From a phage: 64,000 bases of DNA. Below are positions 3,255-21,187 of this stretch, in pieces. Location of the stretch: sequence record PV730302.1. One strand, 5' to 3'. Position 1 is the stretch's first letter, and each line of letters begins with the position of its first letter. Below the pieces are notes generated by a model. That model was not told the origin of the DNA, searched no databases, and worked only from the letters and a program-made list of their open reading frames with translations. A program made the position numbers and the translations under genes.

Positions 3255-3533
3255 TTATAGCTTTTTAAGCTTACGACAATAAGAATAGAACACGTCGTTA
3301 AAATTATGCTCAACCCAATTCCTCTGTATAGGCGAGGTAATGGAAAGCATATAATGAGCTTTAATTAAATCCATCCCATTTTTATTAGGACATTCTTTAT
3401 TATTAGCATTATACGTCGCTGCTACAACCTCTATCTCTCTTTTGTAAGCCACATCATCCATGATAGGCGAAAGAACAATATAAGAAATAGCCACAGCGAA
3501 CGCTAGAATTAAAATCTTTGAATTTAGGTCCAT
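3255..3533 (-). CDS. small membrane or secreted protein
   Basis: ORF track 92 aa; N-terminal hydrophobic helix. Confidence 0.45.
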   Translation of the reverse strand: MDLNSKILILAFAVAISYIVLSPIMDDVAYKREIEVVAATYNANNKECPNKNGMDLIKAHYMLSITSPIQRNWVEHNFNDVFYSYCRKLKKL

Positions 3534-3540
3534 AGTACCC

Positions 3541-4113
3541 TCAACTCGTTATTTCTATCCAGTGCTTCCTGCACAATGACACGTAAGAATCGTTGCCACC
3601 TATAGAAACTTGGGCTCCGTCCTTAATTGCAATACCATCTTGGATACGAGCCGTCATAGTAGCTTTACGGCCGCAATGGCACACACCTTTGTACTCAACG
3701 AGTTTATCTGCTGTAGCGAGTAATTCAGCAGAGCCAGGAAACAGTTTACCCTGAAAATCAGTTCTTAGCCCATAGCACATAACTGGAACATTATAATTGT
3801 CTACTATCTTTGCCAGTTGTTTTATCTGTGCAGGTTCTAAGAACTGTGCTTCATCCACAAATACACAGTGGATATCTTTTTGAGATTCAGCCCAACGATA
3901 GAACTCGTATAGGTCCATATCCGGAGTCACGGCATTAGCCTCTTGACTAATCCCTATACGAGACGAAATGCTATGGCTTGATTCTCTATTGTCTATCGCA
4001 GGCTTTAAAAGGAGTACGCCCATACCGCGTTCTTTGTAGTTATGAGCCGCTGTTAGCAATGAAGCGGTCTTCCCAGAATTCATCGCCGCATAGTGAAAAT
4101 AAAGTTGAGCCAT
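3541..4113 (-). CDS. tk: thymidine kinase
   Basis: 190 aa; P-loop MNSGKTASLL, C-terminal Cys cluster CHCGRKA...LCRKH; size matches T4 Tk. Confidence 0.9.
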   Translation of the reverse strand: MAQLYFHYAAMNSGKTASLLTAAHNYKERGMGVLLLKPAIDNRESSHSISSRIGISQEANAVTPDMDLYEFYRWAESQKDIHCVFVDEAQFLEPAQIKQLAKIVDNYNVPVMCYGLRTDFQGKLFPGSAELLATADKLVEYKGVCHCGRKATMTARIQDGIAIKDGAQVSIGGNDSYVSLCRKHWIEITS

Positions 4114-4122
4114 ATTACCTTC

Positions 4123-4329
4123 TTAAAGACTATTTACATAAGCAATTAATTCATTTTCTTTCTCATCAAATCGATTAGCAAATTCTTCCAGATGGTCGGC
4201 ATCTATAGGGCCATATTCATCATAAAAAGAATTTGCTTCTGCATGCTCATCTAGAAGTTCATGGATAAGCTCAAACAATTTATCTTTCTGCTCTTTACTC
4301 AGACTCATAACCATTGTACCTTTAAGCAA
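4123..4329 (-). CDS. hypothetical small acidic protein
   Basis: ORF track 68 aa. Confidence 0.35.
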   Translation of the reverse strand: MLKGTMVMSLSKEQKDKLFELIHELLDEHAEANSFYDEYGPIDADHLEEFANRFDEKENELIAYVNSL

Positions 4330-4517
4330 TATTCTTCAACATGCTGTTTGCGTTTATTTTTATCTATAAAAGTATATTCAACATATTCACCAATATACCA
4401 TTTATCGGTGTTATGTTGACTTTTTATAGGGCATTTAGTTACTCGGGTTTCGGACCAGTGTCGAATAATTTCCGCTTTATTTTTAGGGTCAAACGGATGC
4501 GGGTAATGGGCTTTCAT
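4305..4517 (-). CDS. hypothetical protein
   Basis: ORF track 70 aa. Confidence 0.4.
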   Translation of the reverse strand: MKAHYPHPFDPKNKAEIIRHWSETRVTKCPIKSQHNTDKWYIGEYVEYTFIDKNKRKQHVEEYCLKVQWL

Positions 4518-4956
4518 AATCTACCACCACTAAATTAATATCAGGAGTAAACAAATTAATCAATTGATAAACCTTGTCCCAATCACCACCAGCAATACCA
4601 CAACCGATGCGAGGGATATAAATTCTTGGTTTAAACAAAAGACCCTTTGCGGTACGGTTTAATTCTATCATACAGTTTACTAAAGCACCGTAATCAAGAT
4701 TAGGGCCCGGTTCGTATTGGGTGTATAAATTATAGCAAATTTGGCCCTTATTACCTGTGGCTTGAGTAAACGTGCCAAGTTTTTCCAAATGGCCTAAATA
4801 AGTGGTTTTATCGATAGCGAGAATAGGCGGATAAGCCTTAGCCAATTGCCCAGCTACACCTGAACCCATTGTATGGAAACAGTTACACCCGTGAGCAACA
4901 TTATTACCTTGAAGAAACAGGGCGACGATATCGCCCTTAATATAATCAATAATCAT
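4489..4956 (-). CDS. macro-domain-like protein (putative ADP-ribose binding or hydrolase)
   Basis: 155 aa; N-terminal GDI...GNNVAHGCNC...GSGVAGQL resembles the macro-domain GDI/NAAN/GGGV motifs (pattern recognition, not computed). Confidence 0.5.
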   Translation of the reverse strand: MIIDYIKGDIVALFLQGNNVAHGCNCFHTMGSGVAGQLAKAYPPILAIDKTTYLGHLEKLGTFTQATGNKGQICYNLYTQYEPGPNLDYGALVNCMIELNRTAKGLLFKPRIYIPRIGCGIAGGDWDKVYQLINLFTPDINLVVVDYESPLPASV

Positions 4957-5309
4957 TTAGAGTTTAGTCCTCGGTTGTAAGAGTCAACGAGTCTGTCTAC
5001 CATAGACGCGCACATTTCTTTGTACTTTTTATCAGATGGAATACATTCAGTAACGTTTAGACGTTGCTCGTATCTTTTAGAAAGAGTTTTCTCTTTCATT
5101 CGGCGATGCTCTACGTCATTCTGGCCATCTTTAAAAGCAGCTGTGATTTTTGAACTGAATTCGATAATGCATTCAGTATTACTCGGATGACAATAATCTT
5201 TTGCTGTACGGGTAGCATACTCGACAATTGAATTATTACTATCATAAACTTGTGACGCTAATACTCCCGGAGCAATCAACATAAGCGCTATAGTCATCTG
5301 CTTAATCAT
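4953..5309 (-). CDS. secreted hypothetical protein
   Basis: 118 aa; N-terminal signal-like MIKQMTIALMLIAPGVLAS. Confidence 0.5.
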   Translation of the reverse strand: MIKQMTIALMLIAPGVLASQVYDSNNSIVEYATRTAKDYCHPSNTECIIEFSSKITAAFKDGQNDVEHRRMKEKTLSKRYEQRLNVTECIPSDKKYKEMCASMVDRLVDSYNRGLNSK

Positions 5310-5849
5310 TTAATATACCGCCTCAAACATCTTTTTAGATTTTAGATAATTGGCCTTTTCTAGAACTTCAGAAGCATATTTACTGCCTACTTTGACGTTC
5401 CAGCCCGCATTATAAGAAGCAATCGCTTTTCTCAGGTCACCTTTGTGAACATCAATCCAATAAGACAGTTCAATGTAGGCCCAAGAGGCACTGTTCTGTC
5501 GTTTTTGGACCATACGGATTATTTCTTTATCAGACATCTTCCAACCTACCTGTTGAACACGACTTCTTAACGTAGGCAAGTAATTTTGGAACATGCCATA
5601 AGCATGGTGCTTATCTTTATTTAAACCCTGATTAATTCCGGCGGATGATTCCTGCCATAGTAATCCGGCCATGATATATCCTAATCCTTTTTGATTAGGG
5701 TTTTCTTTGAACTTTCCCGACTTTTGGTATTGTTCACCGAAAGCATACGCATAATGTAAATTATCGAGTTGTTCATTACTGAAAGTAGGCTCTACGCTAT
5801 GGGCAGACATACTAACTGTCAATAGTAAAGTGGCTAATACTTTTTTCAT
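5310..5849 (-). CDS. secreted lytic-transglycosylase-like (SLT domain) protein
   Basis: 179 aa; signal peptide MKKVLATLLLTVSMSAHS; motifs LLWQESS, GMFQ, SYNAGW resemble the SLT catalytic signature. Confidence 0.55.
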   Translation of the reverse strand: MKKVLATLLLTVSMSAHSVEPTFSNEQLDNLHYAYAFGEQYQKSGKFKENPNQKGLGYIMAGLLWQESSAGINQGLNKDKHHAYGMFQNYLPTLRSRVQQVGWKMSDKEIIRMVQKRQNSASWAYIELSYWIDVHKGDLRKAIASYNAGWNVKVGSKYASEVLEKANYLKSKKMFEAVY

Positions 5850-5861
5850 GAGACCTCATTA

Positions 5862-6320
5862 TTAAAGATAGATTACTTTCGTGCTGGTTTTACCTTCTAA
5901 ACGTTTAGAGTTAACAAATGCCATACGACATTTAAGGGAATATCCTTTATCAGGATGCTTACGGTCTACTGTCATACCCAACCATAAGGTTTTATCGGTA
6001 ATTTCTAGACGCAATGGGCGATACACTTTACCAGGGACAATTTCGGATTCTACATCAGGCAGAGGTTCCTGGATTAAAAATTCATGGATTTCTTTAACAT
6101 GGTTATGGAGTTGCTTGAATAAAGCAAAAACGTATTTTTCGTCGATTTCACGTTGGATAGCACGGTCCAACAAGTGATTAGAGTACTTAATAAAGAAGGC
6201 TGGGACTCCGCTCTTGATGGCGGCTTTTTTGATGGACGTATTCAGTTCACGGAATTCGGTTTCGAACTGACGACGTAATTTATTGCGGCGGATGAATACT
6301 TCTGAATTAATTTCTGACAT
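5862..6320 (-). CDS. regB: RegB site-specific endoribonuclease
   Basis: 152 aa; N-terminus ...EVFIRRNKLRR...HLLDRAIQREIDE matches remembered T4 RegB; early promoter cassette upstream. Confidence 0.85.
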   Translation of the reverse strand: MSEINSEVFIRRNKLRRQFETEFRELNTSIKKAAIKSGVPAFFIKYSNHLLDRAIQREIDEKYVFALFKQLHNHVKEIHEFLIQEPLPDVESEIVPGKVYRPLRLEITDKTLWLGMTVDRKHPDKGYSLKCRMAFVNSKRLEGKTSTKVIYL

Positions 6321-6338
6321 TTTGTAATCTCCTGTAGT

Positions 6339-6377
6339 TGATAGGTCTATAGTACCACGTCTACAGGAGATGTAAAC
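6339..6377 (-). promoter_or_regulatory. early promoter/stem-loop cassette upstream of regB
   Basis: minus sense GTTTAC-AT-CTCCTGTAG...TACTATAGACCTATCAA-CTACAGGAG-ATTACAAA-ATG. Confidence 0.7.
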
Positions 6378-6381
6378 TGCT

Positions 6382-6591
6382 TTATTCTTGGAATGGGGTA
6401 AGTTTTCCAGCAGCTGAACAAATTTCTACCAGTACAGGGTAAAACTCTTTCACTTGTTCAAGGCGTTGGGCTGCATACTGTACTTCACCTTCTTCGAGAC
6501 AAGCCATTTGGTCGTCAAGCAAGTATTTGTGGTAGCCAGTACAGGCTTCACCGATGATACGCTGGAAATCTTGTAAACTTTCAATTTTCAT
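6382..6591 (-). CDS. hypothetical protein
   Basis: ORF track (start moved to internal MKIESL giving an ATGA overlap with the upstream ORF). Confidence 0.45.
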   Translation of the reverse strand: MKIESLQDFQRIIGEACTGYHKYLLDDQMACLEEGEVQYAAQRLEQVKEFYPVLVEICSAAGKLTPFQE

Positions 6592-20600: not shown

Positions 20601-21002
20601 TTAACCCTCGTCTACAATAGTATGGGTATTAGCATTAACAATCTGCCACCAGTCAAAACGATCGGAGCCGTAAAGAAACTTATTCTCGTTTTCTTTAACA
20701 ATTTCACGTAGTTCATCTTCAGTGGCAGCTTTAGCGATTAAATCGGTATAGCCACCACGTGGATAGTAGTTATCACCCGCGAACAGAAGGAAATTTACTT
20801 TACCAGAAGGAACATATGCTTCCTTAGGATACTTGTTTCCTGCTTGGTCTACCACTTCAATATAACGGTAAGGAATATCGGTACTTTCAACCCATTGCCA
20901 AGCTGCAGCAGGGGATTCAAAAGCATCTACACCTAAACGGTTATCTTCATCTTTAGACGGATTATTTTCATAATCCGCATATGCATAATATTCAACGTTC
21001 AT
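20601..21002 (-). CDS. hypothetical protein
   Basis: ORF track 133 aa. Confidence 0.5.
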   Translation of the reverse strand: MNVEYYAYADYENNPSKDEDNRLGVDAFESPAAAWQWVESTDIPYRYIEVVDQAGNKYPKEAYVPSGKVNFLLFAGDNYYPRGGYTDLIAKAATEDELREIVKENENKFLYGSDRFDWWQIVNANTHTIVDEG

Positions 21003-21187
21003 TATTCACCTTTAGAGATTTTATCCATAACGATAGCGATTAAGCCGATTAGAAATGCTACTACCAATGAGATAGAATTTTCTGTTGTTGTCAGTAGTCC
21101 ACAAATGAATCCTACAAACATCGAAAAACTAAAAGCCATTGAAGCAATTACTACAGCAACATTACGAATCAGTTCAGCGCGTTTCAT
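21002..21187 (-). CDS. small membrane protein
   Basis: 61 aa, one to two TM helices; promoter cassette upstream. Confidence 0.4.
   Translation of the reverse strand: MKRAELIRNVAVVIASMAFSFSMFVGFICGLLTTTENSISLVVAFLIGLIAIVMDKISKGE

Follow-up and report, generated by a model that had tools for sequence, protein, structure and literature searches.

The window analyzed here, a 64,000-nucleotide (nt) stretch of phage DNA from sequence record PV730302.1, contains two adjacent minus-strand genes, vs.1 and vs, whose products are the subject of this analysis. A first-pass annotation made from the letters alone had described the interval 4953-5849 as two consecutive open reading frames (ORFs) for secreted early proteins, one with a lytic-transglycosylase signature, and had suggested a comparison with the T4 early genes near tk. 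The two ORFs do adjoin on the minus strand, and the comparison gave each of them a name:

5310-5849, minus strand: vs.1 coding sequence, 179-amino-acid (aa) precursor (PHROG 600, E 6e-67)
4953-5309, minus strand: vs coding sequence, 118-aa precursor (PHROG 1256 'valyl tRNA synthetase modifier', E 3.8e-34)

The region 3500-6400 shares 96-98% nt identity with Shigella phage PSD9 and Escherichia phages WG01, IME08, and Bp7 (Dhakavirus), genomes that carry annotated vs, vs.1, and regB; judged by its sequence, the source phage is a T4-like member of the genus Dhakavirus. Position and homology to named T4 genes establish 5310-5849 as the orthologue of T4 vs.1 and 4953-5309 as that of T4 vs. T4 Vs.1 (T4p112, UniProt P13311) is 67% identical to the window protein, equal in length, and encoded between regB and vs as here; it shares the signal peptide and the motifs described below, with no difference of substance. 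T4 Vs (T4p111, UniProt P13310; PF26829, PHROG 1256) is 45% identical to its counterpart and shares its four cysteines, its signal-peptide-like N-terminus, and its position, and PF26829 is found on P0101, a protein near-identical to the window Vs. An early periplasmic murein-cleaving enzyme separate from gp5 lysozyme and endolysin e had been called unusual at first pass. The pair is no rarity: relatives of vs.1 occur in ~2,000 phage records.

Both precursors begin with what appears to be a signal peptide, as recognized by a heuristic under which the segment, 15-32 residues long, must have a positive n-region and a hydrophobic core of ~8-12 residues free of charges, with small residues in the -3 and -1 positions:

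5796-5849, minus strand: predicted vs.1 signal peptide, residues 1-18, MKKVLATLLLTVSMSAHS followed by VEP (heuristic, conservation, and low predicted local distance difference test values, pLDDT, at residues 1-20)
5256-5309, minus strand: predicted vs signal peptide, residues 1-18, MIKQMTIALMLIAPGVLA followed by SQV (heuristic and conservation)

Among the 137 ATG-initiated ORFs of at least 60 aa in the window, five pass this heuristic, two of them being the adjacent vs.1 and vs, and the three others encoding 61-68 aa. The feature is retained across homologues despite sequence drift, in 26 of 29 vs.1 relatives, 26 of 27 vs relatives, and 59 of 65 vs.1 ORFs from IMG/VR loci; the failures are mostly wrongly called or truncated starts. 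The T4 N-termini are signal-peptide-like as well, reading MRKALLAGLLAISMMAHS before SEH in Vs.1 and MTKILVLCIGLISFSASASA before DTS in Vs, such that the predicted mature proteins would start at Ser19 (SEHTFSNVQLDNMR) and Asp21 (DTSYTEIR), respectively. The signal-peptide-like starts noted at first pass are thereby borne out at the family level, and both N-termini are predicted to behave as conserved, cleavable Sec-type signal peptides of the signal peptidase I type, through which Vs.1 and Vs would be exported.

Other routes were considered for Vs.1 and set aside. Export as a lipoprotein or by the Tat pathway finds no cysteine and no twin-arginine motif, and a signal anchor of the SAR type is at odds with a hydrophobic core of just ~11 residues. 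Lacking a cysteine, a lipobox, and twin arginines, and having so short a core, Vs.1 should, once its signal peptide is cleaved, reside in the periplasm as a soluble protein. In Aeromonas phage 31.2 (KY290951.1), the vs.1 ORF spans L002:1801-2340, and its annotated coding sequence begins at an internal Met (L002:1921), a start that deprives the product of its signal peptide and N-terminal helix; the in-frame upstream reading is MRFLAILILLFTSHVFA followed by GP. A 61-aa ORF at 21002-21187 on the minus strand of the window (MKRAELIRNVAVVIASMAFSFSMFVGFICGLL at its start) also passes the heuristic, and its long hydrophobic stretch makes it more like a small membrane protein.

Active-site motifs and predicted fold of Vs.1

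The predicted mature Vs.1 has 161 aa, a mass of 18.6 kDa, an isoelectric point of 9.4, and no cysteine. The three motifs noted at first pass, LLWQESS, GMFQ, and SYNAGW, are present in that order, and the alignments add a fourth position near the C-terminus:

5643-5663, minus strand: motif I, LLWQESS, residues 63-69 (E67 and S68 conserved; aligned to EtgA and goose-type lysozyme)
5651-5649, minus strand: codon of the predicted catalytic Glu67 (invariant)
5586-5597, minus strand: motif II, GMFQ, residues 85-88 (G85 and Q88 invariant)
5400-5417, minus strand: motif III, SYNAGW, residues 145-150 (S145, Y146, N147, and G149 invariant)
5376-5378, minus strand: motif IV, Tyr158 (invariant; aligned to a Tyr of EtgA and goose-type lysozyme)

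Across the six frames of the window there is a single match to the composite pattern ES..G..Q..[AS]YN.G, and 100 codon-shuffled windows gave none. In a set of 31 Vs.1 sequences that reaches down to 30% identity and spans Aeromonas, Acinetobacter, RB43-like, and Felixounavirus-like phages as well as Kuttervirus, the invariant residues are Q27, E67, G85, Q88, E127, W131, S145, Y146, N147, G149, and Y158, a list that includes the ES, G..Q, YNAG, and Tyr set of the family-1 lytic transglycosylases. E67 is invariant both here and among the 29 relatives; S68 is invariant among the 29 and at least 90% conserved among the 31.

The remaining comparisons point the same way. Of the 29 relatives, 24 match Pfam SLT (PF01464) at E ≤0.01, the best at 1.3e-7, and a precomputed PF01464 match is present on several Vs.1 homologues. 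An AlphaFold2 model of Vs.1 built from the alignment (pLDDT 86.9, with low confidence limited to the signal peptide and one loop) has a lysozyme-like, mainly helical catalytic fold, for which the best-ranked Foldseek matches are MltD, goose-type lysozyme, and Slt, with probabilities of up to 0.99. HMMER profile alignments of the Vs.1 family with EtgA and goose-type lysozyme chains from the PDB place E67 on the ES of EtgA (AIAWNES) and of goose-type lysozyme (IISRES), whose Glu we take to be catalytic in both, and the YNAG and the final Tyr align too.

What weighs against this assignment lies mostly in the scores. Taken alone, the window protein falls below the Pfam gathering cut-off (15.6 bits, E 0.012, against 21.3 bits), so that the Pfam SLT search suggested at first pass succeeded for the family and fell short for the single sequence. 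The Foldseek E-values are weak, none being better than 0.02, and those of the HMMER alignments are marginal (0.06-0.3) despite coverage of the whole domain. A single-sequence phmmer search of the PDB with Vs.1 returned no matches, and NCBIfam gave no usable match for Vs.1 or Vs. From the family-level Pfam matches, the invariant motifs, the model, the Foldseek ranking, and the HMMER alignments taken together, we conclude that Vs.1 has the GH23 (SLT and goose-lysozyme) fold, as judged by sequence and model, with an intact active site.

In architecture, Vs.1 is closest to specialized transglycosylases such as EtgA of the type III system of enteropathogenic Escherichia coli, likewise a small, stand-alone, Sec-exported SLT domain. 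Vs.1 differs in an extra N-terminal helix and hairpin at residues ~20-56, and while the solved EtgA entry is a fusion with the small partner EscI, the candidate partner of Vs.1, Vs, is unrelated to EscI. Moreover, the neighbors of vs.1 (regB, vs, a macro-domain gene, and tk) include no trans-envelope machine, and none was found in 65 related loci. Because no such machine is encoded nearby, Vs.1 is not placed among the specialized transglycosylases EtgA, VirB1, and IpgF despite the alike architecture. Its identity to the housekeeping family-1 enzymes of E. coli and Pseudomonas (Slt70, MltC, MltE, MltF, and MltD) is 13-15%, and unlike them it has neither a lipid anchor nor accessory domains, is phage-encoded, and is early.

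The SLT reading of vs.1 is itself already known as a prediction (2003/2006). A marginal Pfam match and a resemblance to SLT were noted in six of six genomes, with PSI-BLAST cited for the T4 ORFs (Nolan et al., 2006, their reference 15), and no other paper came up when the literature was searched for functional work on vs.1. Some GenBank and UniRef entries for vs.1 are accordingly named 'transglycosylase SLT domain-containing protein'. Several GenBank records give vs.1 orthologues the name of the neighboring gene ('endoribonuclease', 'RegB domain-containing', 'site-specific RNA endonuclease'), and one names its orthologue 'C-type lysozyme/alpha-lactalbumin family'.

Vs and its conserved cysteines

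The predicted mature Vs has ~100 aa and a mass of 11.6 kDa; the T4 precursor is 13.1 kDa and its predicted mature form 11.0 kDa. Every Vs homologue found carries PF26829 and comes from a T4-like phage, and a profile search reaching beyond that group recovered nothing but PF26829 phage proteins. In the AlphaFold2 model (pLDDT 76.8), four helices, at residues 24-39, 45-68, 73-89, and 94-115, pack into a bundle. Conservation across the family is essentially confined to four cysteines and two glycines, and this includes divergent members that the hidden Markov model missed and that profile-profile comparison by hhalign confirmed (probability 97.7%, E 1.4e-12). The cysteines are encoded as follows:

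5010-5192, minus strand: four Cys codons of vs, namely C40 at 5192-5190, C47 at 5171-5169, C89 at 5045-5043, and C100 at 5012-5010

All four are invariant in alignment A2. Family-wide, C40, C47, and C100 each occupy an invariant alignment column, and every row has the third cysteine too, offset by two columns. In the model the cysteines sit at the helix ends of the H1/H2 and H3/H4 junctions, an arrangement that suggests two hairpin-stapling disulfides; the bundle is probably held by C40-C47 and C89-C100.

At five loci (L032, L033, L034, L038, and L052), Vs has a lipoprotein lipobox, MKKLFVLLVVVALSGC followed by K (VALSGC, then K), in place of the signal peptidase I site. The lipobox-bearing ORF begins at the vs.1 stop, for example at L032:3049-3375, and the L038 copy is truncated to 65 aa. 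In a close relative of the window phage (IMG/VR contig of 155,101 bp, L006:3041-3298, protein P0107), Vs is cut short at 85 aa and retains just two of its four cysteines, possibly a natural vs mutant. Several records of vs orthologues are named 'valyl-tRNA synthetase', as though they encoded the enzyme itself.

On account of the conserved signal peptide, the conservation of little besides cysteines, and the lipobox variants, Vs is predicted to be an extracytoplasmic, that is, periplasmic protein. The annotation of T4 Vs, in contrast, describes a cytoplasmic function, whereas the sequence features of T4 Vs and its relatives predict export, some relatives being predicted lipoproteins. Predicted export thus conflicts with the annotated binding of cytoplasmic valyl-tRNA synthetase (ValRS): binding in vivo would need a cytoplasmic location, and this is not the one predicted for Vs.

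Gene cluster, linkage, and T4 mutant fitness

The surroundings of the pair are those of T4, in the order regB-vs.1-vs-tk.4-tk:

6349-6376, minus strand: T4-early-type promoter-like site, GTTTACA-16 nt-TGgTACTAT (TG-n-TACTAT), a consensus match upstream of regB
5862-6320, minus strand: regB endoribonuclease gene, upstream neighbor of vs.1 (Pfam REGB_T4, E 6e-69; PHROG 1323)
4489-4956, minus strand: tk.4 macro-domain gene, downstream neighbor of vs (Pfam Macro, E 1.3e-7)
3541-4113, minus strand: tk (Pfam TK)

A gap of 12 nt, with a GAGG Shine-Dalgarno sequence inside it, separates regB from vs.1; the vs.1 stop abuts the vs start (TAAATG), and the vs stop overlaps the tk.4 start (ATGA). From regB to tk.4 the genes form a packed early unit on the minus strand, whose transcript likely starts, by consensus, at the 6349-6376 site. 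Plus-strand ORFs overlapping vs and vs.1 were considered as well; they are short, and the family matches fall on the minus-strand genes. In a time-resolved omics study of T4, vs and vs.1 are both classed as 'early-RNA_middle-Protein', indicating that both proteins are made in T4, and the early RNA class agrees with the early-type site upstream of regB, as does the early timing proposed at first pass.

Some features of the neighboring genes stand apart from the pair. The ribosome-binding region of regB (6320-6345, minus strand) contains GGAG (ACAGGAGATTACAAAATG), the motif that RegB cuts (T4 record note), suggesting that regB regulates itself. The T4 orthologue of tk.4 has been named AdfM, an anti-DarTG2 counter-defense factor (HIDEN-SEQ preprint). 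Directly downstream of tk, a 92-aa ORF (3255-3533, minus strand) occupies the place of T4 rI.1 and rI and matches PHROG 6298 (function unknown); it has a hydrophobic N-terminal segment, MDLNSKILILAFAVAISYIVLSP, without a positive n-region, and its product is possibly a membrane-anchored protein.

Pairing of the two genes was surveyed in 65 IMG/VR loci with a relative of vs.1, of which 62 also have a gene of the Vs family. In 54 this gene is the next ORF, starting -8 to +7 nt from the vs.1 stop, and in eight RB43-like loci it lies ~1.1 kb downstream, past two inserted ORFs; the other three have no Vs-family gene. Conversely, all 27 loci found by the Vs profile carry vs.1 on the same contig. Two further small genes were seen at such clusters. 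In Klebsiella phage pKp20, a 130-aa signal-peptide protein (MKKAAILLCCAFSVNA followed by WEK) is encoded directly after vs (L003:2663-3055), and in Aeromonas phages whose cluster lacks vs (L002:2656-3096 and L059:3356-3796) a 146-aa predicted lipoprotein (GMYGC) is found.

Fitness data come from transposon insertions in T4 (HIDEN-SEQ preprint, 2025). Both genes are non-essential, insertions having been recovered at 30 of 32 TA sites in vs and 46 of 52 in vs.1. Mean reads per site in vs fall from 103 in the reference library to 27-34 in liquid LB, with a further log2 fold change of -2.19 in M9 glucose (adjusted p ~0); those in vs.1 fall from 76 to 15-23, with a further -0.87 in M9 glucose (p 0.0055, adjusted p 0.16). 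The neighbors stay flat: vs.3 has 634 reads per site in the reference library and 650-652 in liquid LB, vs.4 has 267 and 265, and their changes in M9 glucose are ~0 (-0.06 and -0.02). By these tables, liquid LB depletes insertions in both vs and vs.1 3-5 fold. The same study reports vs as the T4 gene most depleted in M9 glucose, confirms a plaque defect of the vs knockout on M9 glucose, and states that the role of ValRS modification is unknown. That vs and vs.1 are depleted in parallel is compatible with a common function and speaks against Vs being a mere antidote to Vs.1.

The role of the pair

The reading that we consider probable is that the early, exported GH23 enzyme Vs.1 and the exported Vs together make up a module that works in the periplasm and is conserved among T4-like phages. 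Its elements come from two sources: gene identity, fold, motif conservation, signal features, and synteny from the present analysis, and timing and fitness from published T4 data. Beyond these, we infer export itself, the reaction chemistry, the disulfides, cooperation (if any) of Vs with Vs.1, and what the pair is for. In this scheme both proteins would be translated from an early mRNA that starts at the regB promoter. The Vs.1 precursor would be exported by the Sec pathway and, its signal peptide cleaved, become a basic periplasmic protein of ~18.6 kDa, in which Glu67 would act as acid/base to cleave the bond between N-acetylmuramic acid and N-acetylglucosamine (MurNAc-GlcNAc) of peptidoglycan, most likely as a lytic transglycosylase. 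Vs, from the immediately adjacent cistron, would likewise undergo Sec export and processing, yielding a small four-helix bundle oxidized to two disulfides that would work in the periplasm, possibly on or with Vs.1. Since infection is normal though Vs.1 is present early, its activity would have to be limited or local, that of a remodeling rather than a lysis enzyme, and the pair would give a modest gain in fitness, presumably via limited, non-lytic remodeling of the host sacculus during infection. That the role of Vs is periplasmic and exercised jointly with Vs.1, as a two-protein cell-wall-remodeling module conserved across T4-like phages, is a more tentative proposal, and one that we hold to be doubtful as it stands.

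As to the enzyme, Vs.1 could instead be a hydrolytic muramidase of the goose-lysozyme type. Goose-type lysozymes use extra Asp residues just before and after their GLMQ motif. In the alignments of 29 and 31 Vs.1 homologues, no Asp or Glu between E67 and E127 is invariant, and it is this lack of a second invariant carboxylate that leans the assignment, by sequence, toward a lytic transglycosylase. The top structural matches are, moreover, mostly lytic transglycosylases, and hydrolysis appears rather improbable. Far less credible still is a catalytically dead peptidoglycan-binding protein, or ORFs that are not expressed genes at all. The gene is non-essential, and no activity has ever been measured for its product; yet residues of the catalytic type do not vary even among homologues only 30% identical, orthologues are conserved by the thousands, and the T4 proteins have been assigned an expression class.

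Vs raises a more serious rival, namely that it is what its annotation says, a cytoplasmic ValRS-binding peptide whose hydrophobic N-terminus is unused for export, or which is only partly exported, with its adjacency to vs.1 reflecting the T4-type gene order. Genetic interactions of T4 vs with host valS(ts) strains are said to have been reported. A role in amino-acid supply would explain why vs is the most depleted gene in M9 glucose. Set against these are the Sec-type signal peptide of nearly all homologues, the canonical lipobox variants, and a conservation limited to four cysteines and two glycines, which is the pattern of a disulfide-stabilized extracytoplasmic protein. The purified ValRS factor was, moreover, reportedly ~10-11 kDa, a size that would fit the processed T4 Vs (11.0 kDa) better than its 13.1-kDa precursor. 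A cytoplasmic Vs is therefore unlikely in our estimate. A different partnership is also conceivable, in which Vs is an inhibitor or immunity-like protein restraining Vs.1 in the periplasm. The inhibitors PliG, Ivy, and Tsi offer parallels, as does T4 Spackle (sp/61.3), an early, small, helical, Sec-exported protein that inhibits the gp5 lysozyme in the periplasm (PMC7677548). The two genes adjoin and are packed as for translational coupling, the periplasm is the predicted location of both products, the faster-evolving of the two is Vs (45% identity to T4, against 67% for Vs.1), and loss of vs is harmful in M9 glucose, all of which would suit an inhibitor. However, loss of vs.1 should then be neutral, with or without polarity, yet vs.1 is depleted about as strongly as vs in liquid LB, and vs.1 occurs without vs in other phage families. 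Restraint of Vs.1 by Vs is accordingly improbable, more so than a cytoplasmic Vs.

The periplasmic-module reading has its own difficulties. The annotation and the biochemistry of the 1970s, as cited in later papers, assign Vs to ValRS binding, with which the minimal-medium defect of the vs knockout is also compatible. For vs.1, the transposon phenotype may stem from polarity of the insertions on vs, to which it is translationally coupled. The broad collinearity of T4-like genomes makes the adjacency of vs.1 and vs weak evidence of cooperation, and vs.1 is found without vs in Aeromonas phage 31.2, the Felixounavirus-like phiEa21-4, and Kuttervirus BSP101. Finally, the literature searched gave experimental localization or activity for no member of either family.

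The transglycosylase reading brings in no novel type of system; its contribution is to strengthen a long-standing, marginal prediction about a gene that ~2,000 sequenced phages carry. For T4 it would add a third peptidoglycan-cleaving protein to gp5 and endolysin E, one predicted to be made early and sent to the periplasm. Less well known is that Vs is predicted to be exported and is constantly paired with vs.1. As an apparently exported and disulfide-bonded protein partnered with vs.1, Vs offers an alternative hypothesis for the need for vs in minimal medium. If Vs is periplasmic, its 50-year-old label of 'valyl-tRNA synthetase modifier' would go back to binding that arose once cells were broken, to a side activity, or to a mis-assigned ORF, and the minimal-medium defect of T4 vs mutants would be a phenotype of the envelope, not of translation.

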